DNA of 64,000 bases, from the NCBI GenBank assembly GCA_022573285.1, contig JACZUF010000010.1, positions 5,602-69,601 on the forward strand, written 5' to 3'. This DNA is from Chloroflexota bacterium. Lineage in GTDB: Bacteria; Chloroflexota; Dehalococcoidia; Lucifugimonadales; UBA3495. Made by a program: the position numbers and the translations under genes. Positions 4,150-58,727 of the stretch are shown piece after piece. Below the pieces are notes generated by a model. That model had not been told where the DNA came from and did not search any database. It worked only from the letters and a program-made list of their open reading frames with translations. Each line of letters starts with the position of its first letter. The stretch's first letter is position 1.

Positions 4150-4301
4150 GGATCCCGGTGGACAAGCCTCATACCCTGACGATATTATTCCCGCAACACC
4201 GGCCCAGTGATTGAGGGATAATTAATTCTCGCTACCGCAAGCGCCTATCTCAGCATTGTTCGTCTCATTGATAGCCCCATCTATGTAATCGTCAGGTCGT
4301 T

Positions 4302-5723
4302 TTGACGCCGCTACGTCAATCTGTTATGCCAGTCAAAGAAAATCCCGGCCACATCCTCCAACTCACCGACTCAGTTACAACCCGAAAGTGCGCGTTTCGC
4401 CTGGACTTCACTGACGCCGATCTGCCCTGGGAGCGGTTGCTCGAACAATGCCTCAAGAATCCTCCCATCGACCGGCTACTGGAGGAACACCGCATAACCC
4501 CGGAGTCCGCCCAAAGCCTGTCTGCCATTCAGGACTTGGTCTACGTCAGCGACGAACACGGTCGGCTTCATGACATGTTCCCGGGGACTACCGTGAAACA
4601 AGGAGGCCGCACATTAGCCGCCGGGGCGGCCCCGGAGGTGGTTCTTGGGCGTACCGGCGAGATTGACGTAGCGGTGATCGACCTGGAGATAGACCGTTGG
4701 AACGTCGGTTATGGCCGCAATTGGACGGGCTTCAACAGGAGGAGATGGGGGAAGAACGAGTCCACCTATCTCGGTTTTGTTAGGTCTGCGCTGGAACCGG
4801 ACCACAGTCCCTCAGAAGCCGAATCAATCCTTGGGCTAGATTCGGCGGAGGCTAGACTGGTTGTCCTGCGGGCCCTGGCCATGCGAATCTGGGAAGCCGA
4901 CTTTGAGAGCTACTCCCGGTTTACCGGTCAGAAACTCATCTTCAAATCCGGGGACGAAACGGTCCGCAACATTATGGAAGGCGGCGGCGGAATCTGCTCT
5001 GAAAAAGTTCAAGCCTTGAAATTTCTCACCGATAACCTGGGTTACGAATCGGAGTATCTTCTGGCCGGACCCAACGCCCGAAGACCGATCCCCGAAGAGA
5101 AGCTGCGCGAGCTTCTCACTACCTTTGAATTCGGACTTTCCAAACGGTATATGCGTTACTGGCAGCACATGGCGCTCTTGTATCACCTAGATGGCGCCGA
5201 TATCATCGTTGATGCCACCAACGGGAATATACCTTTCATATTCCTGGCGGGGCCCGAGGCCGAACCGATGCTCAACTGCTGGGAAAAGGCTCCGGTATCC
5301 GTGAGAATGTCCTTGCATGAGGAGTCGTTCTATTACCACCGGGTATCCCAAGACATTCCCGAGGACCTGCTCTTTGCGTTGGAGGGTTGGATCCCCGAAT
5401 CCGACTTGATCCAGGTTTTCGAAAACGAACTAGGCCTTATCATTTCGGAGGGGTTCTTCGTCACGCCGATCCCATACCGGGACCGGCAGGGGTTCTTGGA
5501 GCTGGAGCGGCAATACAAAGAAGCCTGCGAGAAGGTTGGCCTGCCGTGCGTAGTCACCGAAAAATGGAGCCTGGATTCCGATATTGGGTCACGTTTTACC
5601 CAGGCGCACCCCTTCGCCAGCCAGCAGATCATGGCGTCCGAGCGGCATTTACTGTCCCGGTACAATGCAAGCGAAGGTGTAGACCATGAAGCCGGTTTGG
5701 TGGTGGTGAGGCTGAGGAACTGA
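4302..5723 (+). CDS. transglutaminase/papain-fold (Cys-His-Asp) protein, function unknown
   Basis: 473-aa ORF with a TTG start at 4302 and an alternative ATG at 4326. GGGGIC(232)SEKVQALKFL, then about 57 aa to RYWQH(289)MALLYH, then about 15 aa to IVD(304)ATNG, matching transglutaminase-core spacing. Confidence 0.7.
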   Translation: MTPLRQSVMPVKENPGHILQLTDSVTTRKCAFRLDFTDADLPWERLLEQCLKNPPIDRLLEEHRITPESAQSLSAIQDLVYVSDEHGRLHDMFPGTTVKQGGRTLAAGAAPEVVLGRTGEIDVAVIDLEIDRWNVGYGRNWTGFNRRRWGKNESTYLGFVRSALEPDHSPSEAESILGLDSAEARLVVLRALAMRIWEADFESYSRFTGQKLIFKSGDETVRNIMEGGGGICSEKVQALKFLTDNLGYESEYLLAGPNARRPIPEEKLRELLTTFEFGLSKRYMRYWQHMALLYHLDGADIIVDATNGNIPFIFLAGPEAEPMLNCWEKAPVSVRMSLHEESFYYHRVSQDIPEDLLFALEGWIPESDLIQVFENELGLIISEGFFVTPIPYRDRQGFLELERQYKEACEKVGLPCVVTEKWSLDSDIGSRFTQAHPFASQQIMASERHLLSRYNASEGVDHEAGLVVVRLRN

Positions 5724-5807: not shown

Positions 5808-6875
5808 ATGTTAAATATGCTTAAAGGACGCATAATTCGCCTCCGGCGCAGGAGGGGGGTAGGCGCCAGTTTTGTATTGGCAGCTCTCCTGGTCAGCATC
5901 GTCGGCAACGCCATGACGTTCTACCTATTCGAGAGAGGCGCCCGTCCGGAGTTATCCGTCGGCGATAGCTTTTGGTACAGTATGATATCCATCACGACGA
6001 TTGGATACGGTGACCTTTCCGCCAACACCATTGGGTCCAGGATCGGGACCATATTTTTTATCACGATGGTGGGCCTCACCGCATTCACCGCCTGGGCCGG
6101 CATCATAATCGGCTGGCTGATCGATCTGCAACACAGGGAGCGGACTGGCATGGGGAGTTTATATGTGAAGGAACATATCTTGATAATCAACTACCCCAAT
6201 GAGGGCCGCGTCCGCCACATAATCGACGAGTTCATGTCGGACCCGGCGCACCGGGAGGACGAGATCGCCATCATCACCGACCAGGTGGAATCACTGACCT
6301 TCTCGCATCCCAACGTCTACTTCGTCCGTGGCTCGCCCCTGGAATTGGAAACCTACGAACGGGCGAGGGCAGCCGAGGCCCAGAGGGCCATCGTTTTGAG
6401 CACGGGTTACGACGACCCGCACAGCGACAGCATCGTTGCGTCGGCCGTTTCCGTGCTGCACCGTTCGAACCCGCGGATCATGGCCACGGCCGAGTGCATC
6501 GATCCCAAGCATGCCGTGCTTTTTGAGCAGATGGACAACGTGTCCCTGGTTTTCCCGCTTCAGATGGCCAACAACCTTCTGGTGCAAGAATCTCAGGACC
6601 CGGGTGTAAGCCTGCTGGCCCAAGTCATCACCAGTAATAAGATGGACGGCACTCTGCTCAGCACCCGCTTAGAAGCGGTGCCGGAGAAGCGGGTAGCCTA
6701 TCCGGACATCGCCAAGCGAATGCTGGACCGCGACATCAACCTGGTGGGAATCGTGCGCAACGGGACCGTGCATCTCCGGTTCACTGAGTTGTTTCCGGTG
6801 CAAGATGATGTGCTGGTCTACATCGCTTCCTCCCGGCTGGAGTGGGAAGCTCTTCAGGAATCGTTGGCTCCCTGA
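5808..6875 (+). CDS. 2-TM potassium channel with C-terminal RCK (TrkA-N/C) domain, MthK-like
   Basis: K+ selectivity filter TTIGYGD lies between two hydrophobic helices. It is followed by an ILIINYP...VRGSPLE Rossmann-like RCK domain. Confidence 0.9.
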   Translation: MLNMLKGRIIRLRRRRGVGASFVLAALLVSIVGNAMTFYLFERGARPELSVGDSFWYSMISITTIGYGDLSANTIGSRIGTIFFITMVGLTAFTAWAGIIIGWLIDLQHRERTGMGSLYVKEHILIINYPNEGRVRHIIDEFMSDPAHREDEIAIITDQVESLTFSHPNVYFVRGSPLELETYERARAAEAQRAIVLSTGYDDPHSDSIVASAVSVLHRSNPRIMATAECIDPKHAVLFEQMDNVSLVFPLQMANNLLVQESQDPGVSLLAQVITSNKMDGTLLSTRLEAVPEKRVAYPDIAKRMLDRDINLVGIVRNGTVHLRFTELFPVQDDVLVYIASSRLEWEALQESLAP

Positions 6876-6948: not shown

Positions 6949-9900
6949 ATGGTTAAGATCCCGATATTAGACCGGCTTGAAGGCTTGTCTCAAGCCATGA
7001 ACGCTCGCAGGGGGGCAGACCACCGTTTGGGGGGAAACCGCCTGAAGGAGATCCGGAGGCTCGATGCAGCTTCCTATTCCGATGTCGAACTGCGGGATAC
7101 CATTCATCGGATCGCTGGAGAGCTGGCCCATCGGGACCAACGCGGATCGGGTGACGATAACCTGCCGGCGGTGTTCGCCGTCGTCAACGAAGCCATCAAC
7201 AGACGGCAGGGGGCGTGGCGGTTCTTCGACCCAGCCGCGGACCAGCAAAGCCTTCAGCGGTATCATGCGCTGGCGGACCGCATATCCCACAGCCTGGATT
7301 ATGAGCGGGCCGCGATGGAGTGGGCGGGCAACGAGAGCAGATGCTGGGAGAGCTTCGACCAGGCCGTTAATCCGCTGATGGTCCGCCAAGGATTGGACCC
7401 CGAGGAAAGAATCCTGGTGGGGACGATTCTATTCGTCAGCCAAAGAAGCCAAGCGGAATACACGGCAAGTATCCTTCTCCCCGCCTGCTTTTATCAAACG
7501 CTCCAGGCACATGACAAGGACGGCGCACTGGCGTTTCGGGTGAGCGACGAGCAGATCCAGGCCGGGATTCTGCTGTACCAGGGCAACATCGTGGAGATGA
7601 ACGCCGGCGAGGGCAAAACGATTGCCGCGGTATTCCCTGCCGTCTTGCACGCGGTCCACGGAAGGACCGTTCACGTCATAACCGCCAACGATTACCTGGC
7701 TGGCAGGGACGCCGAGTGGCTGGCCCCCGTCTTCGAATCCCTCGGCCTAAGCGTGAGCGCAGTCCTGGAGGTCATGGACGAATCGGACCGGCGCTTTGCC
7801 TACGGGAAAGACATCGTGTACGGCGCCCTCCGGGAGTTCGGTTTCGACTTCATGCGGGACAACCTCAAGCTGTCTTCTGCCGAAGTCGTCCAACGCCGGT
7901 TGGATGTGGCCATCATCGACGAGGCTGATCACGCGCTAATAGATGAGGCCAATATCCCATTGATAATCGCCGGCGGGTCCGGGGCCGCCCCCAAGATACC
8001 GGCCAAGCTCAGGATAACCATTGAGGATCTAGTTGATCTGCAGCGTGCCGCCGTCTCGGCCTTGGAGCGGGAGTTGGAGCGCCTTCGACCCCGGTCGGAG
8101 GCCTACTTCCAGCTAATAGCCAAGTTGTATCTCGCCGATCCCGATGGCACGGTTTTGCGGCGGGAGTTCACCGCCGATCCCAGATGCTTGAAGCGCGTGC
8201 TTCGGATTTTCGCCGCGTGCCGCGTTGACGACGAATATGACAGCTTGACCGGCGGTCTTTGCTACTGGACCGACGACGATGGCAAGTCCCTATGCTTGAC
8301 CGAGAAAGGCCAAGATTTCGTCGAGTCCCGTCTCGGACCCCTGTTTGAAGACCTGGCCCTGCAGGAGCAGCTAAGCAGTGTCCAGGCGAATTACGACCTT
8401 CCGTTGGCCTTTCGCCGAAAGGAGATTGACAAGCTGAACCGGCAGCTTGCCCGGAGGCAGGACCGGATGCACCAGGTAGTTCGAATGTTGTGGGGCTACG
8501 TTCTACTGAAGAGGGACGTGGATTACTTGGTGCGGGATGACCAGGTTGTGCTGATCGATAAATACACTGGCAGAGGGCGCCCCGATACCCGTTATCACTA
8601 CGGGCTTCAGGCCGCCCTTGAAGTGAAAGAGGGTGTGCCGGTCCAACCTGAACACGAAGTTCTGGGCCGGATATCGGTGCGGGGCTTCGTGTCCCAATAC
8701 AGCAACCTTTCCGGCATGACCGGGACCGCCATGTCTTCCAAGGGCGAGTTTAGACGGGCCTACGGGCTGGATGTCGTAGCCATGCCACCCAGCAAGCCCT
8801 TAAAACGCACCGACCTCGAGCCCAGGATGTATTTCAGCAAGGGTGACAAGCTTCAAGCGATCTTAGAAGAGGTCCGCTTCTGCCACGGAATGGGCAGGCC
8901 GGTGCTGATCGGCACCCACTCCATCGAAGAGTGTGACGCGATCTCACAACTGCTGCGGGATGATGGCATCGAACACAACGTGCTCAACGCCGCCAACGAC
9001 CTGGAAGAGCATCGGATCATCGATGAGGCGGGCCTTTTCGGCTCGGTTACCGTGGCCACCGACATGGCCGGGAGAGGCACTGACATTGTCCTTGAAGCCG
9101 GATCGGACCGCCGGATCGCCGCCAGCTACGTTGCTTTGGTGGGCGAATTGCTGGCCCAGGGAGTTGGCGTCGTGAAGCTCAATTGCCCGGCCAAGGACGC
9201 TGCTGAGGTCTTGCTGTCCGCCATTGAAACGGCGGATCTGGATTGTTCGGTTGCCACAGTCCAGAACGGCGGCAGGACCGATGTTACCGTATCCGCTCAA
9301 GACGAAACCACCCAGGCCCGCACGGTCTATTTGGAATTCGGGCTTGGGCTGTACGTGATCGGGGCAGGAAACAGCGATAACGCGAGAATCGATCGTCAGC
9401 TCAAGGGCCGGAGCGGGAGGCAAGGAGACTTTGGCGCCTCCCGGTTCATCTCGTCTTCGGAAGACGGGCTCCCGAAGTTTGCTGGTGACGCGTCATCCGG
9501 GTTGGCCGGCGCAAGGACCGACTTTGCCGGACGTGCGTTCCGGGAAGGGGAGTCACTGACACGCCACCTCGAGAAACTCCAGAAGAACGCCGAAAAGGAC
9601 GCTGAATCCCGGCGGGCGAGGACCGAAGAATACACCCGGGTTTTCGAGGCGCAATCTTTCACTTACTACCGTGCCCGGAAAGATATCCTCCGCATGGAGA
9701 GCTTCCAACCTTTCCTTTCCCGGTTGGTGGCGGCGAAGGCCGGCCAGCTAGCCCAGAAGTACTTTCCTAATTCGCTGGTCGAGGACTACGAGCGTCAGTT
9801 CACCGGGCTCAGCGAGGAACTGGACCTCGACTACAAGGTTTCTGCTTCAAGTTTACGGGGGCTGGACCTCAACCTGCTGGAAGACGAGATGGCCATTTTG

Positions 9901-10236
9901 ATCGAGGCCAGGCTGGACCAGGCCAGGGAGAGATTTACAGCTGGGGAGTTTGAGAAGCTGGCGACGCTTTTGTATCTGCAAACAAGCGATGAGCTATGGA
10001 GGGACCATATGTCCTACGCCCAGAGCTTGATTCTTTGCACACAACTGTGTGGCAACAATGGGAGGGGCGACCTGGCCGCCTATACCCTGACCAGCTTTGA
10101 ATCCTATGAACACTTTCAATACCGGATCGTGGATTCATTCTTGCCGAAATTGGCTGCTTTCCCCAGTGGATTGACCGGGGGACCGCAGCCTCCGCAATTA
10201 GAGATTTTCGAGGAAGTCATTCAAATTCTAGCGTGA
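6949..10236 (+). CDS. divergent SecA-family ATPase (SecA paralogue), 1095 aa
   Basis: SecA motor motifs are present: MNAGEGKTI (Walker A), VITANDYLAGRDAEW, IIDEADHALIDEANIPLIIAG (Walker B), GLQAALEVKEGV, LSGMTGTA, ATDMAGRGTDI, RIDRQLKGRSGRQGD. It has extra insertions and no Cys-rich C-terminal zinc tail. Confidence 0.9.
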   Translation: MVKIPILDRLEGLSQAMNARRGADHRLGGNRLKEIRRLDAASYSDVELRDTIHRIAGELAHRDQRGSGDDNLPAVFAVVNEAINRRQGAWRFFDPAADQQSLQRYHALADRISHSLDYERAAMEWAGNESRCWESFDQAVNPLMVRQGLDPEERILVGTILFVSQRSQAEYTASILLPACFYQTLQAHDKDGALAFRVSDEQIQAGILLYQGNIVEMNAGEGKTIAAVFPAVLHAVHGRTVHVITANDYLAGRDAEWLAPVFESLGLSVSAVLEVMDESDRRFAYGKDIVYGALREFGFDFMRDNLKLSSAEVVQRRLDVAIIDEADHALIDEANIPLIIAGGSGAAPKIPAKLRITIEDLVDLQRAAVSALERELERLRPRSEAYFQLIAKLYLADPDGTVLRREFTADPRCLKRVLRIFAACRVDDEYDSLTGGLCYWTDDDGKSLCLTEKGQDFVESRLGPLFEDLALQEQLSSVQANYDLPLAFRRKEIDKLNRQLARRQDRMHQVVRMLWGYVLLKRDVDYLVRDDQVVLIDKYTGRGRPDTRYHYGLQAALEVKEGVPVQPEHEVLGRISVRGFVSQYSNLSGMTGTAMSSKGEFRRAYGLDVVAMPPSKPLKRTDLEPRMYFSKGDKLQAILEEVRFCHGMGRPVLIGTHSIEECDAISQLLRDDGIEHNVLNAANDLEEHRIIDEAGLFGSVTVATDMAGRGTDIVLEAGSDRRIAASYVALVGELLAQGVGVVKLNCPAKDAAEVLLSAIETADLDCSVATVQNGGRTDVTVSAQDETTQARTVYLEFGLGLYVIGAGNSDNARIDRQLKGRSGRQGDFGASRFISSSEDGLPKFAGDASSGLAGARTDFAGRAFREGESLTRHLEKLQKNAEKDAESRRARTEEYTRVFEAQSFTYYRARKDILRMESFQPFLSRLVAAKAGQLAQKYFPNSLVEDYERQFTGLSEELDLDYKVSASSLRGLDLNLLEDEMAILIEARLDQARERFTAGEFEKLATLLYLQTSDELWRDHMSYAQSLILCTQLCGNNGRGDLAAYTLTSFESYEHFQYRIVDSFLPKLAAFPSGLTGGPQPPQLEIFEEVIQILA

Positions 10237-10289: not shown

Positions 10290-11069
10290 ATGGGCAAAAG
10301 AAAGAGAATGGGGATGTCGCTTCTCCTGGGTTCAGGCATGTTAGTAGCCGGTCCGGTGCTGGCCGGTTGCGCTTACGGCGTGACCGCCGACAATTGGGCC
10401 GCCACCGAGGGGGCCATCGGCAGGATTAACATGGAAGCGGTCGAGGAGGCCTTCAAGAAATCCCAGTCTGTCGAGGAATTCGAAAAGCGTTTGAACGAGA
10501 TCTACGAAGGGGACGAGATCGTACTGATCCGGGCCAAGGATGAGGATGGCAAACGGGTGATCGAAGGCTACGAAGATCTGAACAGAAATTTCGAAGTCGA
10601 CCCGGACAAAGACGATCTACTATTCACCATCACCAATGAAGGCGACTCGAACGACCTCCGGGGAAACGGCGCGAACCAACATTACCGGAGCTCCTTCGGC
10701 GGCGGAAATTTCCTCTTCACCTATCTGATCTTCTCGTCTCTGGGACGAGGCGGTTTCGGCTACCACACCCCTCGTTCCCGGGTGCCTCAGATGGAGAGCC
10801 AACGGAATAGTTATCGTAATTCAACGGCCTATGCGGGCGGGCGCACCGGAGGGCAGGTCAAGAGAAACTCAACCTACTACAGCAAGCAGAGAGCCAGCAC
10901 GCAATTGAGCACGGCCAGGCAGAGTTATATCGGGACGCAGAAGACCAGCGGAGCGTTCAGGACCAGCAATACCGGCGTAAGGTCCGGTTTCGGCAAATTT
11001 GGCGGCGGCCGTGGCGGCCTCAGCGGTGGTGGTGGCGGCCAGATCATCATAAGGGGCGGGCGGTGGTAG
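10290..11069 (+). CDS. lipoprotein with acidic globular part and Gly/Arg/Ser/Tyr-rich low-complexity tail
   Basis: Signal peptide with lipobox LLVAGPVLAGC. The C-terminal third is FGGGRGGLSGGGGGQIIIRGGRW-type low complexity. Starts 53 nt after the SecA-like gene. Confidence 0.8.
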   Translation: MGKRKRMGMSLLLGSGMLVAGPVLAGCAYGVTADNWAATEGAIGRINMEAVEEAFKKSQSVEEFEKRLNEIYEGDEIVLIRAKDEDGKRVIEGYEDLNRNFEVDPDKDDLLFTITNEGDSNDLRGNGANQHYRSSFGGGNFLFTYLIFSSLGRGGFGYHTPRSRVPQMESQRNSYRNSTAYAGGRTGGQVKRNSTYYSKQRASTQLSTARQSYIGTQKTSGAFRTSNTGVRSGFGKFGGGRGGLSGGGGGQIIIRGGRW

Positions 11070-11095: not shown

Positions 11096-12211
11096 ATGGA
11101 TGCTGACTCCGCTAAATACCGGAAAGAGTTGGCCGGTTTTTCCATCGAATACAATCCCGCCAAGGCCTACTACATCAAGCATCGTCCGTTTATCCTCCAG
11201 GTTTCCTTGGGCGACATGGACCTTGAGGACGCATTTTGGGTGAAGCTTAAGCCTGAATACCTGGAGTCCCGCCTCGGCGAGTTCCTAGACGATATCTTCT
11301 CCGGCAACCGCAGGCAGCAGGCAAAGTACCGCTCATGGCTGGACGTTAGGGAGAACCCGGACCTACCTGATATGTATACTGCGTTGCTCGAGATATTCGC
11401 GGAATGGCGCAGCGGGAAATGCACTCTTCATTTCTTCGCCAATCAGGGGCCGGAGATCAAGATGACCGACCGGCTGGACGACCACCTCAGTTTGATGCAG
11501 TCGCCGGAGCACCGGATGGAAGAGACTCCATTATTGGACTTGGTGATCGAGCAGAAGCTTGACGTCCTGGACTATCTGGCCAACTCCGGCTACTTCAAGG
11601 ACAAACAGACGATGATGGAGTTCATGCAGACCAACATGCTGATGTTCTTCCTCGACAAGCATGGATACAAACTTTCGGCAAGTCCAATAGTTGAGACCGA
11701 TAAAGACCTGCTGCCCATCGCCGAAAAGCTCCAGTCGGCGAAGCTAATCGAAACGCCGGACCTATCGGAGACTTTCGCGATAACCGAGGAAGGCAGGCAA
11801 GCCATCAGCAGAACGATCGCCGAGACGGAATCATACATAGACCAATATGACGTCTTCAAAGACGTGTTCTTCGACCCGGACAGCGGAGCGCTTGAGTTTG
11901 AAACCGGCCGCGGCAAGGACCTGAGAGTCCAGATGTATGAGCATGAAGACCTAGACCCGGTGCGGATCGTATTTTTGCTCCGTCTTTACGACTCCACCTT
12001 CGATGAAGTCCAGGCGGCTTGGCGCGATTCCATCCACTCGGAGCAATTTTTCGGGGAGATTTTAAGCCCGATAATGAACGCGGAGCGAACGGACGAAGAT
12101 ATGGTTGAAATGGTCCTCGAAGCCGGATACAACTTCAGCGAGGCCCAGTTCGATACCGCCAAAGAGGCGGAATCGCAGGAGGAATTACTCCGGCGAATAA
12201 GGGAAGAGTGA
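11096..12211 (+). CDS. acidic cytoplasmic protein of unknown function (possible winged-helix segment)
   Basis: 371-aa ORF starting 26 nt after the lipoprotein gene, with no TM segments. The stretch LPIAEKLQSAKLIETPDLSETFAITEEGRQAI looks wHTH-like, but this is weak. Confidence 0.75.
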   Translation: MDADSAKYRKELAGFSIEYNPAKAYYIKHRPFILQVSLGDMDLEDAFWVKLKPEYLESRLGEFLDDIFSGNRRQQAKYRSWLDVRENPDLPDMYTALLEIFAEWRSGKCTLHFFANQGPEIKMTDRLDDHLSLMQSPEHRMEETPLLDLVIEQKLDVLDYLANSGYFKDKQTMMEFMQTNMLMFFLDKHGYKLSASPIVETDKDLLPIAEKLQSAKLIETPDLSETFAITEEGRQAISRTIAETESYIDQYDVFKDVFFDPDSGALEFETGRGKDLRVQMYEHEDLDPVRIVFLLRLYDSTFDEVQAAWRDSIHSEQFFGEILSPIMNAERTDEDMVEMVLEAGYNFSEAQFDTAKEAESQEELLRRIREE

Positions 12212-12227: not shown

Positions 12228-13115
12228 TCAGATGGCCAAAAACAGTATCATCGCCGAACCGATAACCACCGCGCTTTCGATGAAAGCGACCCCCATGTTG
12301 CGTTCGGCGGCGATGGCGTTTGATGTGGAAACGGTGGGTAGCAGCAGCTTATCGAGCAGCACTCGCATGACGTAAAGCAGCGCGAAACCGATCACTCCAA
12401 AAGTGAGAAAGGCTGCGACTCCTTCGACCCACCCGGCAAAATCGCCAAACACTGCTTTAAACGCCACTAACCCGATGGCGATCAGGTTTCCCCCAAACGC
12501 GATACCCACGGCTGTATTGTTGCTTTCGATCTCGGAATGAATATCGAATGATGTGGTCAACTGGTAGAACAGCGCGAAGAGCACCAACAGCACCAATCCC
12601 ATGCCGAAGAACGCCGCCGCTGTGTCTGGCCCGCCGCCCTCTCCCGACACGGCGCCGGCAATCAGTAGCCCGGTGGCCACATACATGCCGAACTCTGCGG
12701 CCCCGCTCCCGACATTTTGGCCTTCAACCACCTCTTTTTCGATATCGAACCGGTAAAGTATCAGCCGGTTCATAAAGATTCTGACCAAGTTTAGAGCGGC
12801 TATGCCGGCCAAGGAGTAGAGGAACACCCTGAGGACGTCCTCGGCATACTCCCGGTCGAACCCCAGCCCGTCCACTGCGATGGAAGCCAACGGCTGATAC
12901 AACGCGCCGAGAAATACTAGTATTACCCCGATGAAGTAGCCGCTAAGCCGCACCGCGACCGCCAGATTTTTTTTGTTCGCGACTTCATCATCGATCCGGT
13001 AGGGGGTGATGATATCCCTGGCGAGCTTGGCGATCACCAATACGATCAACCCCAGACCAACAAACACCAACCCGCGGGGAATAATTTCCAGCGTATCGAT
13101 AATCGCTTCAATCAT
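12228..13115 (-). CDS. multi-repeat DUF350 (YjfL-like) integral membrane protein
   Basis: 295 aa and highly hydrophobic. It has repeated units of the type ITPYRIDDEVANKKNLAVAVRLSGYFIGVILV, YRFDIEKEVVEGQNVGSGAAEFGMYVATGLLI and FDIHSEIESNNTAVGIAFGGNLIAIGLV. Confidence 0.8.
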   Translation of the reverse strand: MIEAIIDTLEIIPRGLVFVGLGLIVLVIAKLARDIITPYRIDDEVANKKNLAVAVRLSGYFIGVILVFLGALYQPLASIAVDGLGFDREYAEDVLRVFLYSLAGIAALNLVRIFMNRLILYRFDIEKEVVEGQNVGSGAAEFGMYVATGLLIAGAVSGEGGGPDTAAAFFGMGLVLLVLFALFYQLTTSFDIHSEIESNNTAVGIAFGGNLIAIGLVAFKAVFGDFAGWVEGVAAFLTFGVIGFALLYVMRVLLDKLLLPTVSTSNAIAAERNMGVAFIESAVVIGSAMILFLAI

Positions 13116-13469
13116 TGTTTTCCCACTTGGATACCGAACATTCAGCTATTTGAGTCCGAATCATCATCTATTTATCACCGATTCCGATTTTTGACGGAGC
13201 AAATTTATCAGGGATATCGACCTACCTGATAGATTTTGCTATTGTAGTGGGCACGTCGAGACAGGTCAAACAATCGTCTGGTGCTTTCGGTTGGTCCGAC
13301 GGGGAATTCAGCTCCAAGAGATCGTTCACCCGCAAAACACGAAAACGCATAGCCACCCTTGTGGCTCCCCGCTACGGACGCGATTCAGGCTGGATTTTAA
13401 TTGTCAGCAAATCGGAACTTTTGTTTCGGTATAGCAGGAACCATTCAGTATTCACGGAGTTCATCCGAT

Positions 13470-14702
13470 TTGAACAGCAATCCCGGTCAAGCAACTGCTG
13501 ACGAATTGTCGGACCTGGCCCAGGTGTTTGCTCAAATCGGGGCCTCGATAGCAACGCCGGCGTTCGTCTACGAAGACGCGTTCATCAGGTCCCGGTGTGA
13601 ACACCTCAAGCAGATCGCCGAAAAGGCCGGCTGTAGACTCCTTTATTCCGTCAAGGCGTTAACTTTACCGTGGGTGCTGGAGTTGATCGCTCCCCACGTT
13701 CAGGGGTTCTCAGCCAGTTCGTTGTTCGAAGCGATCACGGCTCGAAATGTCCTTCCGGCGGAGGGCACTGTGCATCTAACGACTCCGGGTTTGAGGCCCG
13801 ATGAAGTCAACAAGATCTCAGAGTATTGCGACTACATCTCCTTCAACTCCATATCCCAATGGCTGCGGCACAAAGATGAACTTTCAGACCACATGGAGAT
13901 CGGATTGCGCGTGAACCCAGAAGTTTCCTTTCTGGACGATCCCCGCTACGACCCTTGCCGGGCTTACTCCAAGCTGGGCGCATCCACCCACGCCGTCAAA
14001 GAAGCGTTGGGCCAAAACTCCGCGGCGTCGCACGGCGTCAGCGGAATCCTCATCCACAACAACTGCAACGCTCCAGACCTTCGGGAGGTCATGTTAACGG
14101 TCCAAAAACTGGAGAGTGAACTCGGTCACGTCCTAGATAACTCAAAGTGGATCAACCTGGGCGGCGGATATCTGTTCGACCAAGACAGCACCAATCTGGA
14201 CGCGTTCTACGAAGCTGTGGATTCCCTGAAGTCGAGACACGGCCTGGAGGTGTTCATCGAGCCGGGTTCGGCTTTCGTGCGGGACGCAGGTTTTCTCGTT
14301 TCCACCGTGCTTGATCTGATTGAGGACGGCGACAAAACAATCGCGATTCTGGACACGTCCGTGAACCATTTGCCCGAGTCCTTCGAGTATGAGTGGCGGC
14401 CGGATGTTCTGCTGGATATCGAGGGAGGCCGGTTTCCCTACATAATCGCCGGATCTACTTGTTTGGCGGGTGACGTGTTTGGGGAATATGCCTTCGCGGA
14501 GCCCTTGGAGACCGGGTCCAAGGTGGTGATGTACGGCGTTGGCGCCTACAACCTGGTGAAAGCCCATACATTCAACGGGCTTCTTTTGCCATCGATCTAT
14601 TCCCTGGGCGTCAACGGCGAGGTCACTCTGGTGAAGGGATTCACTTTGGAAGAGCAATCTCAGAGATGGGGGTTTGAAGCCAGTGCGCGTTTCGGAAATT
14701 GA
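13470..14702 (+). CDS. nspC: carboxynorspermidine/carboxyspermidine decarboxylase (NspC-like)
   Basis: Collinear similarity (from memory) to Vibrio NspC: TPAFVYED, FNSISQW, GLRVNPE, IHNNCN, WINLGGGY, IEPGSAFV, GSTCLAGDVFG, AYNLVKAHTFNGLLLPSIY. The start is uncertain: the maximal ORF starts at a TTG at 13401, and the TTG at 13470 has GGAG 10 nt upstream. Confidence 0.8.
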   Translation: MNSNPGQATADELSDLAQVFAQIGASIATPAFVYEDAFIRSRCEHLKQIAEKAGCRLLYSVKALTLPWVLELIAPHVQGFSASSLFEAITARNVLPAEGTVHLTTPGLRPDEVNKISEYCDYISFNSISQWLRHKDELSDHMEIGLRVNPEVSFLDDPRYDPCRAYSKLGASTHAVKEALGQNSAASHGVSGILIHNNCNAPDLREVMLTVQKLESELGHVLDNSKWINLGGGYLFDQDSTNLDAFYEAVDSLKSRHGLEVFIEPGSAFVRDAGFLVSTVLDLIEDGDKTIAILDTSVNHLPESFEYEWRPDVLLDIEGGRFPYIIAGSTCLAGDVFGEYAFAEPLETGSKVVMYGVGAYNLVKAHTFNGLLLPSIYSLGVNGEVTLVKGFTLEEQSQRWGFEASARFGN

Positions 14703-16020
14703 ATTTGAGCTGCCCCTCCCTCCCGGACAAGGCAGCATCCTCGATTGGCTTGCCCGCGGGACCGCGGAGAGACTGCCTGACGGCGAGGAGCTGGTACGCC
14801 TGGTAATCACCGAATCCAACCACGACGTTTACCAGTGCGAGGCCACCACCTTCCAGGCCGCCGGGGACTCCCACCGGATTCCCAGTGGCCTGGCGATGGC
14901 GTTTCGGAAGCGCCTGTCGGAAAACACCGGGCGATTCAACGTCGCCATGCTGATACCCACCGGGATCGGCGCGGCCATCGGTGGCCATGCCGGTGACGCG
15001 ACGCCGGTGGCCCAATTGCTGGCTTCCACCTGCGACACCCTGATCATTCATCCCAACGTGGTGAACGCATCCGATATCAACGAGATGCCGGCGAATGCTC
15101 TGTATGTGGAAGGGAGCGTCCTGTGCCGTTTGTTCATGGGGACAGTCGGGTTACAGCCGGTGCGGTCGAACCGGGTGCTGGTGCTGATTCATCCTCACTC
15201 CGACCGGGTTTTCTCTGACTTGGCGGTCAATGCGGTGAATGCGGCCCGTTCCTCATATGGACTTAATTGCCCGCGAATTATCGAGATGGAGCGTCCGTTG
15301 GTGATGAGCCCCGATTACACCGGCTCCGCCAGGGCCGCGGGCAGCGTTGAGGGTTTCGACCATCTGTTTTATCTGCTGGATAAACACCGCGAAGAATACG
15401 ACGCAGTGGCCATTGCGTCGGTGATCTCGACCCCTCTGCATTACTATAGCGATTATTTCTGGAGTGACGGCAGCATCGTCAACCCATGGGGCGGGGTTGA
15501 ATCGATGCTTACCCATACGATTTCAAGCCTGTACGACCTGCCGTCGGCGCACGCTCCCATGTTGGAATCACAGGATGTTTTGGACATTGAAACCGGCATC
15601 GTCGACCCTCGAATGGCCGCCGAGGTCATCTCGGTTAGTTTCTTGCAGTGTGTGCTAAAGGGCCTTCAAAGAAGCCCCAGAATTATCGTTGACCCGGAGG
15701 CCATGCGAGAGCCAAACGTGCTCACTGCTCGGGATATCTCTTGTCTGGTCATACCCGACCAATGCTTGGGTCTGCCCACGTTCGCCGCGTTGGAACAGGG
15801 GATTCCAGTTATCGCCGTCAAAGAGAACCGAAATCTGATGAAAAACGACCTGACGGCGCTGCCCTGGGCCAAGGGACAACTACACATCGTCGAGAATTAT
15901 TGGGAGGCAGCCGGCGTATTGGGCGCCTTGCGGGCGGGGATCGATCCATTGGCGGCGCGGCGGCCCCTTGGGTCTGTCTCGGTGGAAAAGACCAGAACAG
16001 CTACGTCAGTGACGGAGTAG
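14674..16020 (+). CDS. conserved hypothetical protein (LIPTGIGAAIGGHAGDA motif; possibly DUF3326-like, unverified)
   Basis: 448-aa ORF overlapping the nspC-like stop by 29 nt, with a TTG start. The family assignment is from memory only. Confidence 0.65.
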   Translation: MKPVRVSEIEFELPLPPGQGSILDWLARGTAERLPDGEELVRLVITESNHDVYQCEATTFQAAGDSHRIPSGLAMAFRKRLSENTGRFNVAMLIPTGIGAAIGGHAGDATPVAQLLASTCDTLIIHPNVVNASDINEMPANALYVEGSVLCRLFMGTVGLQPVRSNRVLVLIHPHSDRVFSDLAVNAVNAARSSYGLNCPRIIEMERPLVMSPDYTGSARAAGSVEGFDHLFYLLDKHREEYDAVAIASVISTPLHYYSDYFWSDGSIVNPWGGVESMLTHTISSLYDLPSAHAPMLESQDVLDIETGIVDPRMAAEVISVSFLQCVLKGLQRSPRIIVDPEAMREPNVLTARDISCLVIPDQCLGLPTFAALEQGIPVIAVKENRNLMKNDLTALPWAKGQLHIVENYWEAAGVLGALRAGIDPLAARRPLGSVSVEKTRTATSVTE

Positions 16021-16028
16021 CTTAATCG

Positions 16029-17390
16029 ATGATGGCGACGCGGGAAGAAATTCGGGAACGGCTGGCCAACGACGGCGTTAAATACCTGCTCGCCCAGTTT
16101 GTGGACTTGAACGGCTCCCCCAAAGTGAAGTTGGTGCCCGCGGGCCATCTGGACGATGTGATAGACGACGGAGCCGCGTTCGCCGGAGCCGCTCTGCCAG
16201 GACTGGGACAGGGTCCGCACTCCCATGACATGATGGCCCGGATCGATCTGGACTCTTACACGCTGGTCCCTTGGACCGATGGCATCGCCCGCTTCGCCAG
16301 CGACCTCTTCGTAGACGGCCAGCCGCACATGTTCTGCCCTCGCCAGAACCTAAAACGCGTCTTGTCGCAGGTGCGCCAGCAAGGCTACGTGTTCAATGTC
16401 GGAATCGAACCCGAGCATTATCTGGTCACCAAGCAGAAAGACGGCTCCATTGTAGTGTGGGACCCCAACTGCGTTGACAACCTCCGCAACCCTTGCTACG
16501 ACTTCAAAGGCACTTCAAACGCGATTAACTACCTACGCAAGATGATGGATGCCATGGGCCGGATGGGCTGGGAACCCTACCAGTCCGACCACGAAGACGG
16601 CAATGGCCAATATGAGATCAACTTCGGCTACACGGACGCTTTGACCACGGCCGACCGTTACACCTTTTTCAAGATGATGACGAGCCAATACGCCCAGGAG
16701 TTCGGCGCCATCGCCACTCATATGGCCCAGCCCTTCACCAATCGAGTCGGAAGCGGAGGGCATATTCACTACCACCTGGCGGACGCTGCCACGGGAGAGA
16801 ACCTTTTCCTTGACGAGGAAGACCCTCGAGGGTTGGGCCTGTCGCAGTTGGCCTATCAATTTATCGCTGGGATATTCGCCCACGCGCCGGCCCTGTGCTC
16901 GGTCATGTCGCCAACGATAAATTGCTACAAACGGCTGCAGGTGGAACCAGGCCTGACGGATTCTAGTTTCGAATACGTGTGGACGCCCGCGTTTATCGCG
17001 TACGGTGACAACAATAGGACCCAGATGATCCGCACCCCCGGACCCAGCCACCTTGAAGACCGCAGTATGTCATCCGCCTCCAATCCTTATCTGGCTCTGA
17101 GCGTCTACGTCATGGCCGGCCTGGATGGAATACGAAAAGATCTGGACCCAGGAGAGCCCAATCTGGGCAATCTGTACAGCTTGGGTCTGGAGGAGGTCCG
17201 TCGCCGGGGGATACGGTTATTGCCTCAGACCTTGGACGAATCGCTGGCAGAATTAAAGCAAGACGAACTAGTACAAGAATCTTTGGGCGCCATCTACGAA
17301 GAATTTGTAGCCTTGAAAGAAGCCGAGTTGCGGGAGTACCACCGCCAGGTTACCCGGTGGGAGATCGAGCGATATTTGACGCTCTTCTAG
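16029..17390 (+). CDS. glutamine synthetase family protein (type I fold; gamma-glutamyl-amine/polyamine ligase candidate)
   Basis: 453 aa. The N-terminal beta-grasp VKYLLAQFVDLNGSPKVKLVP and the catalytic-domain motifs NVGIEPEHYL, DHEDGNGQYEINF, GSGGHIHYHL and NNRTQMIRTP are typical of the GlnA/PuuA family. Confidence 0.9.
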   Translation: MMATREEIRERLANDGVKYLLAQFVDLNGSPKVKLVPAGHLDDVIDDGAAFAGAALPGLGQGPHSHDMMARIDLDSYTLVPWTDGIARFASDLFVDGQPHMFCPRQNLKRVLSQVRQQGYVFNVGIEPEHYLVTKQKDGSIVVWDPNCVDNLRNPCYDFKGTSNAINYLRKMMDAMGRMGWEPYQSDHEDGNGQYEINFGYTDALTTADRYTFFKMMTSQYAQEFGAIATHMAQPFTNRVGSGGHIHYHLADAATGENLFLDEEDPRGLGLSQLAYQFIAGIFAHAPALCSVMSPTINCYKRLQVEPGLTDSSFEYVWTPAFIAYGDNNRTQMIRTPGPSHLEDRSMSSASNPYLALSVYVMAGLDGIRKDLDPGEPNLGNLYSLGLEEVRRRGIRLLPQTLDESLAELKQDELVQESLGAIYEEFVALKEAELREYHRQVTRWEIERYLTLF

Positions 17391-21507: not shown

Positions 21508-22242
21508 TTAGGCCCGTTCCGGTCCGGCCTCCTCTGATAGGGCGGCTTTGAATCCCTCCCACGCGCCGCTTTCAGAGCCCTCTTCCCAGCCGTCGAAGTG
21601 CACCAGGCCCTCAAGCTCCATCCGGCCGCGCCAGCCCGCGGTCTGCAGGACCGGCTCCGGGGGGAACTCCACTGGGTATCCCAGGCACAGGTATGCCACC
21701 GGTATCACGTGGTGCGGTACGCCCAGTATCTGGCGCAACTGGGGTTGCTTCAAGATGCTGACCCAGCCGACGCCGACTCCCTCAGCCCTGGCCGCCAGCC
21801 ACAGGTTCTGCACGGCGCAGCAGGTGGAATATAGGTCGGTCTCCTGGATGGAGTTACGTCCCAGGACCACCTCCGCCCTGGTTGGGTCGCAGGTGACGCA
21901 AACGTTGACCGCCGACTCCAAGATCCCTTCCAACTTCAGCGACAGATAATGGGAACGCCGCGGCTCGTCAAAGAAACTGGACGCCGCCTGGCGCTCCCGG
22001 TCGAAAAGGTCCTTGACCTTTCGGCGCACATTCATGTCCCGGACCATGATGAAGTCCCACGGCTGCATGAACCCGACCGACGGCCCATGGTGGGCGGCGC
22101 GGATTATCCGGGCCAGGACCTCCGGCGGGATGGGGTCGCTCCTGAATGTCCGGATGTCCCGCCGGGAATAGATCGCCCGGTAAAGGCCGCGTTGTTCCTC
22201 TGCAGTGAAGCCATCTTTCTGGACTGGAGATTTTGATGCCAT
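21508..22242 (-). CDS. bluB: 5,6-dimethylbenzimidazole synthase (BluB, nitroreductase fold)
   Basis: GLYRAIYSRRDIRTFRSDPIPPEVLARIIRAAHHGPSVGFMQPWDFIMVRD is the BluB signature region. The gene sits directly downstream of a cobalamin riboswitch. Confidence 0.85.
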   Translation of the reverse strand: MASKSPVQKDGFTAEEQRGLYRAIYSRRDIRTFRSDPIPPEVLARIIRAAHHGPSVGFMQPWDFIMVRDMNVRRKVKDLFDRERQAASSFFDEPRRSHYLSLKLEGILESAVNVCVTCDPTRAEVVLGRNSIQETDLYSTCCAVQNLWLAARAEGVGVGWVSILKQPQLRQILGVPHHVIPVAYLCLGYPVEFPPEPVLQTAGWRGRMELEGLVHFDGWEEGSESGAWEGFKAALSEEAGPERA

Positions 22243-22286: not shown

Positions 22287-22530
22287 AAAAAGCCCCGTCC
22301 CAATTCGTCGGGACGGAGCTTATGCACACACAGGCGCCCGCTCAATCCACGAAGCGGCGAGTTATGCGCGGCAGGTCTACTGACTCGTGGATCGTCACCC
22401 TTCGGCGCCTTCCCGTCCCGGTGTCCCGATGAATCGGGAGGGACAGTGACTGGCCTGCGCCGTGCCGAAGGACTCCCCAGTTACAGTGGCGGGCCCGTGC
22501 CGGAGTTTCACCGGCTTTCCTATTCTTCCC
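22287..22530 (-). promoter_or_regulatory. cobalamin (B12) riboswitch with intrinsic terminator expression platform
   Basis: The minus strand reads ...aggaaagccggtgaaactccggcacgggcccgccactgtaactgggg...gccagtcactg...agtcagtagacctgccg (B12 box, 22369-22386 on +). It is followed by the terminator ccgtcccgacgaattgggacgg plus ggcttttt (22294-22316) and then the bluB start. Confidence 0.85.
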
Positions 22531-22972
22531 GATGGAATTTCTAGCTTTGGGTAGAAATCAAATCGGGACACCGCGCGCTATTCTGTTTCCGTCCGCAAGG
22601 TTAGGCCATGGCCCGCCGGAAGTCAACGCCCGGTACTCGTTCACTGTATATGAGACAGTTGAGGCAGGATCTACAAACCTGGGTCAGTCAATCGGACACC
22701 GGCTGCAGCCAGTCCGCATCCTTCCTGCCCTGCCAAGCAGACCTCTTTCCCATGAGTGATGGCGGCAGGGGCAGGTAACGCACGTCCTAGGAGCGGCCCT
22801 GCTATTTCGGAATGGGGATTGGAGTTGGCCCAAATTTGCTGATGGACCGTGGGCTATCCGCCACCGGAAAACGGCGGAGGAATAGCTCATAGGGGGAGAA
22901 ATATTTGGGGGAATTGCCGGCGATACCATCGCCGGCAATACTGGACCAGAAGTTGATGGGCCGGGGTCCTAT

Positions 22973-53580: not shown

Positions 53581-54258
53581 TTAGTCCCGCTTTGGCATGA
53601 TCATGACCTTTCGGCCTTCCCCCTCGCCGGTGCTTTCGGTGGTTACCCCCGGATGGTCCGTAAGCGTGGTGTGGATGATGCGCCGGTCGGCCGGAGGCAT
53701 GGGCTCCAGGGTGATGCTGCGGTTGGTCTGGGCCACCCTGGCCGCCACCTTGGTGGCCATGTCGCGGAGGGAGCTTTCCCGCCGCTGACGGTAGTTCTCA
53801 ACGTCAAGCACCACGCGGACGCCGTCGAACTGTTTCCGGACGATCAGGTTGACCAGGAACTGGAGGGCCGCCAGCGTCTGACCCCGGCGTCCGATCAACA
53901 GACCGGAGTCCTCTCCCGCCAGGTCGATGATGGGTCCGCCGGATTCTGGGTCGTTGGCGGCCCGCAAGGTTCGGCTGACGTTGACGCCGGCCGCCTCCAA
54001 TATGCGCCCCACGGTGGCGGTGGCCACGCCGGCGGCGGTGGTCTCTCCCTCTGCGCCAATTGGCACTCCAGCAGCGTTGCGGCCTGAGGATATCCTGGTG
54101 ACCCGGACCCGCGCGACCTCCGAGCCGATGCCCAGGAAGCCGGTCTTGCCTCTACTTAGTATTTCGACCTCGGCCTCGTCGCGGTCGGCGTCGAGCTCTT
54201 TCAGTCCTAGCTCGATTGCTTCGTCGACGGTTCGGGCGCTCATTACGATCTCTTCCAT
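53581..54258 (-). CDS. jag: Jag/KhpB-type RNA-binding protein (Jag_N, KH and R3H domains)
   Basis: ATG at 54256-54258 with AGAGGAGA 10 nt upstream. MEEIVMSARTVDEAIELGLKELD (Jag_N) ... C-terminal R3H region LEPMPPADRRIIHTTL. Confidence 0.85.
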   Translation of the reverse strand: MEEIVMSARTVDEAIELGLKELDADRDEAEVEILSRGKTGFLGIGSEVARVRVTRISSGRNAAGVPIGAEGETTAAGVATATVGRILEAAGVNVSRTLRAANDPESGGPIIDLAGEDSGLLIGRRGQTLAALQFLVNLIVRKQFDGVRVVLDVENYRQRRESSLRDMATKVAARVAQTNRSITLEPMPPADRRIIHTTLTDHPGVTTESTGEGEGRKVMIMPKRD

Positions 54259-55081
54259 CTTGCACCGTCTCCTCTTGTGGGACATCTTGGGATGGCCGGG
54301 CTGCCGCCGCCGGCGCCCGCACCGACGCGGACTTGGGGAATAGTGGGAATAATGGTCCCCAGCCACCAGTCACGAAATATTGGATTCCGATGCCCATCAC
54401 GTTGGACGTTGTCCAATACAGGGACAGACCGCTGGGCAGGGTGAACGAGAAAAACGCGATCATCAAGGGCATCATCCAGAGCATCATCGCCTGGTTGCCT
54501 GACTGCCTCGGATCGCTGGACGGTTGCATGGTCATCTTCTGCTGGACCCAGGTGGACACGAAGACGAGCACCGGCATTATTATGTTGGTGGGGTCGGATT
54601 GGGCCAGGTCCAACCAAAGGAATTTCGAATCCAGGGGCGCGGCCGAGAATACTTGCGCCACCGGGATCCAGGTATACAACTTTTCCGACAGCCCAACCAG
54701 GTTGTCGGGGCGGGAGAATACGATCTGGATCAACACCCGGAACAGGCCGATCAGGATGGGCATTTGGACGATCATTGGGCCCAGGCAGCCAAGGGGGCTT
54801 ACCCCCGCCTCCCGGTACAGCCGCATGGTCTCTTGGGAAATTCGGGAACGGTCCCTGGAGTACCGGTCTTGAATCTCCTTCAGCTTGGGCTGCAGCGAAC
54901 TCATGGCCCGCATCTGCTTCAACTGCTTCAGCGTCAAAGGCAGCGTGGCCATCCGGATAATGGCGGTTAACACGATGATCGCCAAACCCATCTGGCTGAA
55001 GAAGATGGTGTAGAGCACCACCAGGCTGTTGAGCATGGGCCGAATTATCAGTTCGGTCCAGAGGAATGAAATGGCCTCCAA
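54152..55081 (-). CDS. yidC: membrane protein insertase YidC (short, Gram-positive-like form) with Arg-rich tail
   Basis: LAIIVLTAIIRMATLPLTLKQ...LGCLPMIVQMPILIGLF-like core. The tail reads RRRSNRARTERARRRPRRGRGRNTK. Confidence 0.9.
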   Translation of the reverse strand: MEAISFLWTELIIRPMLNSLVVLYTIFFSQMGLAIIVLTAIIRMATLPLTLKQLKQMRAMSSLQPKLKEIQDRYSRDRSRISQETMRLYREAGVSPLGCLGPMIVQMPILIGLFRVLIQIVFSRPDNLVGLSEKLYTWIPVAQVFSAAPLDSKFLWLDLAQSDPTNIIMPVLVFVSTWVQQKMTMQPSSDPRQSGNQAMMLWMMPLMIAFFSFTLPSGLSLYWTTSNVMGIGIQYFVTGGWGPLFPLFPKSASVRAPAAAARPSQDVPQEETVQDGRDRNERPNRRRSNRARTERARRRPRRGRGRNTK

Positions 55082-56712: not shown

Positions 56713-57096
56713 CTACGGGTCTAATGGCTTGTCCACGGTATGCCCTGGACCGGTGGGCTGTGGACCGCTGTCCACCAACTTGGCGCGCCGCAACAGATTG
56801 TCCGTTGCTTCCTTTAGTTCCTGGTACTTGGCGGTCCCGGCCCCGCGCCGGGCTATGAATAAGGCGTCCCAGCCGGCTTTCACCGGGTTCAGGCGGACGG
56901 CCTCCCGCAGGCGGCGTTTCACCCTGTTCCTAACGGCCGCGTTGCCGATGCGCTTACTGACCAGGAATCCGAAGCGGCTACAGTCCGAACCATTGGCCAG
57001 ATACCTTATAACCAATAGCCGATTGGCTGCGCTGCTGCCCTCGACATGGATCTGCGAAAACCGTCTGCTGCCAGTTAACCGTTGCCTGCGTTGCAT
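56713..57096 (-). CDS. rnpA: ribonuclease P protein component RnpA
   Basis: RFGFLVSKRIGNAVVRNRVKRRLREA-type motif, positioned between rpmH and yidD. Confidence 0.9.
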   Translation of the reverse strand: MQRRQRLTGSRRFSQIHVEGSSAANRLLVIRYLANGSDCSRFGFLVSKRIGNAAVRNRVKRRLREAVRLNPVKAGWDALFIARRGAGTAKYQELKEATDNLLRRAKLVDSGPQPTGPGHTVDKPLDP

Positions 57097-57124
57097 TACC
57101 GGGCTGAATTACCGGGCACTGTGT

Positions 57125-57262
57125 TCAGACGGTCAGTTTGTGACGGCCCTTGAACCGCCGTCGCTTGAGAATCGCCCGCCCGTCGGAAGTGCTGGAGCGG
57201 TGGCGAAAGCCATGGACGCGAAACCTGCGTCGTTTCTTGGGTTGGTAGGTACGTTTAGGCAC
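57125..57262 (-). CDS. rpmH: 50S ribosomal protein L34
   Basis: Not in the ORF track because it is under 60 aa. My translation from the GTG at 57260-57262: [45 protein letters not shown]. Confidence 0.9.
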
Positions 57263-57348
57263 AGAAATACATCCTTATCTGCTGGAATTATAGGCGTGCC
57301 CAAATATGGCGTCAAGGAGCCCCGGCGGCTTCGGCCCTGTTTGCCCGC

Positions 57349-57798: not shown

Positions 57799-57840
57799 AC
57801 CGCACCCTTCACTAGGCCAAGATGTCGGGCTGGCGCCCCT

Positions 57841-58194: not shown

Positions 58195-58288
58195 CAGAAC
58201 CCTCCTAACTGAATGACCCGTCATGAATAATAGCAGTCGAAGACTCCCAAGCGTTCCAGACAACATATCGTATAATACCAACGCACAG

Positions 58289-58321
58289 GCCGAAGTGGCG
58301 AAATGGTAGACGCGCCGGTCT
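58289..58321 (+). pseudogene. tRNA-Leu 5' fragment (33 nt, perfect copy of 61834-61866)
   Basis: gccgaagtggcgaaatggtagacgcgccggtct. Identity ends 2 nt into the anticodon loop. A consensus TATAAT lies at 58271-58276, upstream. Confidence 0.85.
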
Positions 58322-58391
58322 TCTGGCCGCGAAACAACGATGGACAGAAGCCCTGATTCGGCAATCAGGATCAAGTGATGAAAGTGCAACA

Positions 58392-58685: not shown

Positions 58686-58727
58686 GTAATTCCAAGGCTC
58701 CCAATCTGACAATAGAGTTGGCAATAA

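Follow-up and report, generated by a model that had tools for sequence, protein, structure and literature searches.

The stretch of DNA analysed here, 64,000 nucleotides (nt) long and called the window below, belongs to contig JACZUF010000010.1 (positions 5,602 to 69,601) of a Chloroflexota bacterium from the class Dehalococcoidia. Its open reading frame (ORF) at 6949-10236 on the plus strand starts with ATG, has an intact frame of 1095 amino acids (aa) and encodes a SecA-like ATPase. SecA is among the most conserved bacterial machines, and accessory SecA2 versions have so far come, to our knowledge, almost only from Gram-positive pathogens. The gene is the third of five plus-strand genes separated by gaps of 27-85 nt, a layout that fits co-transcription. 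We assign a probability of about 0.5 to the reading that its product is an accessory SecA-derived ATPase, neither an ordinary SecA1 nor a described SecA2, that forms a fixed part of a Dehalococcoidia-specific envelope operon with DUF350, lipoprotein, polyamine and K+-channel genes. The genes at the locus are the following.

4302..5723, plus strand: protein A, cytoplasmic, about 465-473 aa (translation may instead begin with the Met codon at 4326), supported by an alignment of 33 orthologues
5808..6875, plus strand: K+ channel with a cytoplasmic RCK ligand-sensing domain (Pfam Ion_trans_2, 1.3e-12; Slo-like_RCK, 1.1e-07)
6949..10236, plus strand: SecA-like ATPase, identified from the ORF, Pfam, NCBIfam scores, alignment with Escherichia coli SecA, an AlphaFold2 model and matches to SecA structures
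10290..11069, plus strand: lipoprotein D, 259 aa, with a signal peptide and the lipobox LAGC, supported by an orthologue alignment
11096..12211, plus strand: protein E, an acidic cytoplasmic protein of 371 aa in which no known domain was recognised
12228..13115, minus strand: eight-transmembrane (8-TM) protein with two DUF350 (YjfL-type) domains (Pfam DUF350, 5e-50), convergent with the operon
13401-14702, plus strand: nspC-like decarboxylase (284 bits versus a cut-off of 409)
14674-16020, plus strand: DUF3326 protein (Pfam/NCBIfam scan)
16029-17390, plus strand: type III glutamine-synthetase-like ligase, linked only in the closest relatives

The SecA-like protein matched the four SecA domains of Pfam in their canonical order (SecA_DEAD, 4e-75; SecA_PP_bind, 3e-15; P-loop_SecA, 3e-48; SecA_SW, 3e-14), a match far beyond chance. 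All the SecA motor motifs quoted in an initial annotation of the ORF are present, namely MNAGEGKTI at residues 217-225, DEADHALIDEANIPLIIAG at 324-342, LSGMTGTA at 587-594, ATDMAGRGTDI at 703-713 and RIDRQLKGRSGRQGD at 813-827. Across 34 family members, G220, E221, G222, K223 and T224 of the Walker A segment, D324, E325 and D327 of the DEAD box, and R813, Q817, G820, R821, R824, Q825 and G826 of the motif VI region were invariant, and so were TGTA, GRGxD and the core of the preprotein cross-linking domain (DY, TGR and GL...KE). Two further peculiarities pointed out by the initial annotation are also there: AGNSDNARID replaces TERHESRRID at residues 806-815, and the C-terminus, EIFEEVIQILA at residues 1085-1095, is without a Cys-rich tail, linker or zinc finger. 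What that annotation missed is that AGNSDNARID is confined to the SAR202 branch; GTExNxSxRID persists in most of the remaining long- and short-form members. The parts of the protein discussed below lie on the plus strand as follows.

7231..7533: insertion 1, a helical bundle at about residues 95-195 in nucleotide-binding domain (NBD) 1, located with E. coli SecA and family alignments and the model
7597..7929: Walker A (MNAGEGKTI, 217-225) to the DEAD box (residues 324-327), located with the family alignment and motif positions
8002..8502: insertion 2, additional helices at residues 352-434 and 469-518, within the preprotein cross-linking domain, located with the alignment and the model
9091..9339: insertion 3, an alpha/beta subdomain at about residues 715-797 of NBD2, within the GRGTDI-LYVIG interval, located with alignments and the model
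9364..9429: AGNSDNARID in place of TERHESRRID, then the conserved motif VI, from the family-wide comparison
10045..10071: two-helix-finger loop LCGNNGRGD, from the aligned column block

Alignment with E. coli SecA paired residues 165-352, 507-725 and 794-1052 of the query with E. coli residues 45-229, 299-517 and 540-802, respectively, which left the query with a surplus of about 120 residues at the N-terminal side, about 85 in the cross-linking domain and about 46 in NBD2 beyond the variable loop of E. coli. Insertion 1 lies between the 'LPxVFAxVxEAIxRRLG' helix and 'FRxTDEQ', a point placed there because the short family members L032, L035 and L039, which are without this insertion, fuse '...EAIRRxL' straight to 'FRATxEQ'. 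The last residue of the segment LPAVFAVVNEAINRRQG is 88 and the first of the Walker A segment is 217, and the earlier estimate of about 100 extra residues between them agrees with the rough figure of 100 derived from the E. coli alignment. Five helices were modelled in insertion 1 (100-113, 116-127, 133-146, 151-166 and 179-188), with a predicted local distance difference test (pLDDT) score of about 90. An origin of this insertion as a tandem duplication of the 'LLPEAFAVV...MRHFD' element was considered and dropped, as BLASTP of the two segments gave no alignment. Insertion 2, an extra segment that the initial annotation had not singled out, is where query residues 353-506 match only E. coli residues 230-298; some canonical SecAs from outside the Chloroflexi align across this region at similar length (for example, query 200-718 versus protein 98-622). 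For insertion 3, we counted 87 residues from GRGTDI to LYVIG, close to the roughly 80 aa given before, versus about 32 in E. coli, and its modelled elements (helices 719-736 and 749-762; strands 741-746, 766-773, 776-783 and 792-796) mostly had pLDDT values of 83-95.

The AlphaFold2 model, built from the family alignment, reached a pLDDT of 83 and a predicted template modelling (pTM) score of 0.80. When it was searched with Foldseek, only SecA structures appeared at the top, and the best target, a substrate-engaged SecA-SecY complex, gave a template modelling (TM) score of 0.79. In this model the motor, the cross-linking-domain core, the helical scaffold and the wing are conserved in a SecA-like fold, to which three extra folded subdomains are predicted to be added. 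The initial annotation had asked whether the clamp, the two-helix finger and the SecY-docking surfaces are retained: the cross-linking domain, the clamp fold and the finger helices are predicted to be kept, but the motif at the finger tip is gone. This tip motif, 'R(A/G)xxQ(K/R/Q)DP', occurs in at least a relaxed form in 26 of 26 canonical sequences, which include short SecA2-like sequences, and was not recognised in any of 22 family sequences. The N-terminal 'FGxxN(D/E)R' segment is missing throughout the family alignment (22 sequences), the 'DPG' after motif VI and the C-terminal tail are lost or remodelled family-wide, and there is no SEC-C tail. Judged from these alignments, the parts of SecA that couple to lipids and to the SecY pore, that is, the N-terminal motif, the finger tip and the C-terminal tail, are lost or remodelled.

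The view of the initial annotation that the protein is a highly divergent SecA-family member agrees with the profile scores, which lie below the cut-off of every curated SecA and SecA2 model. Against the SecA1 models NF009538 and TIGR00963 (equivalog cut-offs of 814 and 800 bits) it scored 537.8 and 519.1 bits, respectively; 13 other family members scored 395-642 bits versus the 814-bit cut-off, and three canonical Dehalococcoidia SecAs scored 1084-1110 bits. All SecA2 models failed as well (score/cut-off in bits: TIGR03714, 399.9/930; TIGR04221, 447/725; TIGR04397, 441/1085; NF012136, 346.5/1100). Ordinary Dehalococcoidia SecA, which includes the 952-aa protein of Dehalococcoides mccartyi, is 876-985 aa long, has a zinc finger of the SEC-C type, bears the name SecA in the NCBI annotation and is encoded in the context glyA-prs-DUF2007-secA-...-valS-coaBC. 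The Dehalococcoides SecA has 44% identity to E. coli SecA (765 bits), and its best single aligned segment with the family genes in tblastn reached 117-274 bits.

A neighbour-joining distance tree (744 columns, 100 bootstraps), which is rough and in which long-branch effects are possible, placed the SecA-like family as a monophyletic group (100/100) outside all canonical SecAs sampled and not with SecA2-like sequences. Canonical Dehalococcoidia SecA was likewise monophyletic (100/100) and was nested among other canonical SecAs, and a clade joining it to the family appeared in 0 of 100 replicates. Mean identity was 31% between the family and Dehalococcoidia canonical SecA and 48% between the latter and other canonical SecAs; overall, the family has 31-33% identity to canonical SecAs, and the representatives of canonical SecA nearest the query come from non-Chloroflexi (Mcinerneyibacteriota, Victivallales and Delongbacteria). 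Because the family never groups with the SecA of its own class, and because that SecA is free of these insertions and falls among other canonical SecAs, the insertions are not a lineage-typical trait of SecA1. The family is not orthologous to the SecA1 of the class; therefore, both co-existed in some ancestor, or the family was acquired horizontally. Canonical Dehalococcoidia SecA has insertions of its own, one of them helical and placed behind the N-terminal helix (about 200 aa in L078) and another in NBD1 ('...YPMQNPAExLPARLYDPDYDSGDExDPWRHFRP...'), neither of which is found in the SecA-like family. As far as these sequence comparisons go, the protein is an ATPase of the SecA family but belongs neither to SecA1 nor to a described type of SecA2.

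Among the 1.84 billion representatives searched, about 45 clusters at 50% identity, all keeping full length, rank ahead of the ordinary SecAs, which begin at about 410 bits. Relatives in the protein databases are also full-length, fall into two bands of 64-97% and 41-48% identity, and are mostly about 1050-1150 aa long. Among the matches listed in a scan of GTDB species genomes, the family was found only in Chloroflexota, mostly in Dehalococcoidia including SAR202. Mean identity within the family is 42% in a single class, a value that points to fast evolution. Subfamilies can be told apart: a long form with insertion 1, a short form of 870-936 aa without it (L032, L035, L038, L039 and L027), and a form ending in '...EQLPxELxxLLT' (L040, L041, L044, L048, L053 and L055). 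One member, P0046 (HIB13012.1, from a Dehalococcoidia metagenome-assembled genome (MAG), 1317 aa), contains 'LPEVFAIVSEVISRRLGTWRLFDPGFDRNS' twice with the Walker A region between the copies; this N-terminal NBD1 repeat may be a genuine tandem duplication or may stem from misassembly. The few members named by NCBI (SAR202 cluster, Chloroflexi and Dehalococcoidia MAGs) are called 'hypothetical protein', and JGI names some members 'preprotein translocase subunit SecA'; therefore, genome-based tallies for these lineages, whether of Sec components or of single-copy markers, may be inconsistent. No curated NCBIfam SecA or SecA2 model covers the family, PADLOC gave no match for the SecA-like protein and its five neighbours, and no published description of the family was found in the literature on SecA2, on SecA in Chloroflexi/Dehalococcoidia, on DUF350/DUF4178 or on SAR202 genomes. 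The exact protein of the window has no entry in the contig index.

The initial annotation had listed an ion channel, a protease-fold protein and a lipoprotein as neighbours, without SecY2 or accessory Sec genes nearby. Each of these points stood up, the three neighbours being recognised by Ion_trans_2 and RCK domains, by an invariant Cys-His-Asp set and by the lipobox Cys, respectively; that these genes form a strongly conserved operon had been missed. Linkage was counted in 50 family loci reaching down to about 30% identity. Lipoprotein D is encoded directly downstream of the SecA-like gene in 49 of them, the single exception being cut by a contig end, and protein A is encoded upstream in 44. 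Lower counts were obtained for DUF350 (41/50), protein E (40/50), DUF4178 (38/50), the nspC-like and DUF3326 genes (35/50), the K+ channel (28/50) and an AMP-binding enzyme (17/50). The clusters of L032, L035 and L039 lack proteins A and E and DUF350 and keep the K+ channel, the AMP-binding enzyme and lipoprotein D. Genes for SecY2, Asp proteins or glycosyltransferases occur neither in the window nor in the 50 related loci.

The 33 orthologues of protein A share an invariant Cys232-His289-Asp304, a predicted catalytic triad of the papain / transglutaminase / arylamine-N-acetyltransferase-like kind; the Pfam match around the Cys (PF00797) is weak, with E values of 0.03-0.09 that lie below the cut-off. 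Lipoprotein D consists of the lipobox, whose Cys is invariant in 41 orthologues, a conserved domain of about 110 aa, a short hydrophobic stretch and a tail rich in Ser, Arg, Tyr, Gln and Gly. Protein E matched nothing in Pfam, NCBIfam or the PDB, and its structure model from the single sequence had a pLDDT of 37. Proteins A, D and E have no sequence relatives in the PDB, and hhalign detected no relation of D, E and A to E. coli YjfM, YjfK and YjfC, respectively. A promoter-like site lies at 4159-4188, by consensus match only. Downstream, the plus-strand region 13401-17390 of the window resembles an uncharacterised polyamine or amide-forming pathway. In two relatives a TelA (toxic-anion resistance) gene is found near the cluster (L002, 2084-3340, and L025; some 10 kb downstream of the SecA-like gene), which adds a link to envelope-stress gene sets.

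Elsewhere in the window, a cobalamin riboswitch (106 bits) at 22353-22590 on the minus strand precedes a nitroreductase-family ORF (21508-22242, minus strand), an unusual gene for B12 regulation. The region 58000-62000 has a GC content of 0.49-0.51, versus 0.55-0.65 in the rest, and adjoins a tRNA-Leu gene (61834-61919); its ORFs (56729-57394, 57451-58098 and 59380-60384) have no Pfam match, and the region may be an inserted island.

If the protein is indeed an accessory SecA-derived ATPase, it would draw on ATP to clamp its dedicated clients, a single polypeptide or a few, and to thread them at the membrane. The likeliest client would be the co-encoded lipoprotein D, whose long tail is of low complexity. 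The acidic protein E might be an adaptor or chaperone, and the route for the client could be either SecYEG or the 8-TM DUF350 protein. General secretion would then be left to a canonical SecA encoded elsewhere in the genome.

Comparison with known systems helps to place such a protein. With canonical SecA it shares the four Pfam domains in order, the Walker A, DEAD, TGTA, GRGTD and RxDxQxxGRxGRQG motifs and the fold (TM-score of at most 0.79), but the family has three extra subdomains, is without the N-terminal motif, the finger tip and the linker/zinc finger, and is encoded in another context. The SecA2-only types used for comparison (Mycobacterium, TIGR04221; Listeria, NF012136; Bacillus anthracis, TIGR04397; and Clostridioides difficile SecA2) are alike in concept, namely a specialised motor that lacks both a dedicated SecY and a zinc tail and probably serves a small set of clients, whose genes may lie close by. 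In mycobacteria, some lipoproteins are among the exports of SecA2. These SecA2s are, however, shorter (about 775-810 aa), whereas the window protein is larger than SecA1. The accessory Sec (aSec) system with SecA2, SecY2 and Asp1-3 (TIGR03714) also has a dedicated SecA relative encoded beside a putative substrate, but its SecY2, Asp and glycosyltransferase genes have no counterpart here, and the protein scores only 400 bits versus 930. The closest resemblance in gene content is to the PspA-CesT/Tir envelope-stress operons, whose partners are an 8-TM DUF350 protein, a lipoprotein, DUF4178, polyamine enzymes and a ligand-gated K+ channel (PMC11237479). These operons, like E. coli yjfIJKLMC, share with our locus the 8-TM DUF350 protein, the lipoprotein, DUF4178 (in the 38 loci counted above), polyamine-type enzymes and the RCK-gated K+ channel. 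They differ in that the SecA-like ATPase and proteins A and E stand in the place of PspA and CesT/Tir, for which no domain was detected: the ORFs between 61 and 17390 gave no Pfam or NCBIfam match to PspA or CesT, a cryptic chaperone fold in protein E being possible.

Several observations weigh against an accessory role with lipoprotein D as the client. The signal of lipoprotein D looks like an ordinary one for Sec and signal peptidase II. Similar operons with DUF350, lipoprotein, polyamine and K+-channel genes occur in other phyla, and SecA is not mentioned in the paper that describes them (PMC11237479); because of this, the adjacency of lipoprotein D is no proof that it is a client. The tree is rough, as stated above. 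A tblastn search with the Dehalococcoides SecA found no second SecA in the 64-kb window, in the flanks of all 84 loci covered, or within 10 kb of the 50 family loci. Moreover, the canonical Dehalococcoidia SecAs that were retrieved (best 120 + 120 matches, with L078, the one canonical Dehalococcoidales SecA among the GTDB matches listed, and a six-sequence profile as seeds) belong to Dehalococcoidales-like lineages, and none of them was found on a contig bearing a family member. Finally, every chromosome-level MAG among the matches listed carries exactly one family member, which is also expected of a sole SecA.

Among the alternatives, the one that fares best, though we hold it to be only about half as probable, is that the protein is no longer a translocase and has become an ATP-driven clamp in a polyamine/DUF350 envelope-stress module, replacing the PspA-CesT/Tir pair or AAA+ chaperones. 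Such a clamp might remodel or hand over a polypeptide at the cytoplasmic face, to be modified there by the Cys-His-Asp enzyme together with the AMP-binding ligase. Alternatively, it might act as a sensor of membrane state. The pairing of the same genes with PspA and CesT/Tir in the published operons, where SecA goes unmentioned (PMC11237479), would fit this idea, as would the lack of a PspA domain among the ORFs scanned near the SecA-like gene, the loss of the elements that couple to SecY and lipids, the linkage to the protein A and AMP-binding genes, and the three new folded subdomains, which could be new interaction surfaces. On the other hand, the cross-linking domain and the clamp architecture are conserved, the most tightly linked gene encodes an exported lipoprotein, and there is no direct evidence for a non-export role of a SecA-family protein here.

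It is rather improbable that the protein is the sole housekeeping SecA of SAR202 and related Dehalococcoidia, in other words a fast-evolving or replaced SecA1 that drives secretion through SecYEG. The single copy per chromosome-level MAG among the matches listed, the lack of another secA beside the family genes in the window and the flanks of the loci, the invariant ATPase motifs and cross-linking-domain core, the SecA-like fold including scaffold, wing and finger helices, and the SecA name given by JGI would all be in line with it. A YidC-type insertase gene (60KD_IMP, 2e-54; 54152-55081, minus strand) is the only general secretion or insertion component of the window; a search of its 64 kb for secY, secE and secG found none, and the presence of YidC with no other Sec gene has likewise been counted on this side. 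However, in the tree the family stands apart from every canonical SecA sampled, that of its own class too, its scores remain far below the 814-bit cut-off, and the finger tip motif is gone, though even SecA2-like sequences keep it in at least a relaxed form. In addition, the gene sits in a conserved operon that is not of the housekeeping type, instead of the glyA-prs-secA context, and entire subdomains are present in some subfamilies and missing from others, something unusual in an essential core machine. Cultured Dehalococcoides are not known to carry a member of the SecA-like family. A decaying or non-functional secA duplicate, which the strong divergence and the changed TERHESRRID of the SAR202 branch might bring to mind, is extremely unlikely given the intact 1095-codon frame, the roughly 45 full-length clusters, the catalytic residues invariant in 34 members, the confidently folded insertions and the synteny conserved down to about 30% identity.

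Returning to the accessory SecA-derived ATPase, a bolder version, which we put forward as speculation with a small chance of being right, is a motor that works outside SecYEG: together with the DUF350 protein, protein E and protein A it would make up an ATP-driven system, complete in itself, by which lipoprotein D is exported, inserted or modified. If this were true, it would constitute an unrecognised pathway of envelope maintenance or secretion, widespread in oceanic SAR202 and soil Dehalococcoidia and standing in for the PspA-CesT module. More generally, the family would be a third, structurally distinct branch of SecA, larger than SecA1, with a remodelled pore-inserting finger and present in a globally abundant environmental lineage. 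It would thereby offer a natural experiment on which elements of SecA serve the clamp and motor and which serve the coupling to SecY, as well as a candidate energy source for the poorly understood envelope/polyamine operon.

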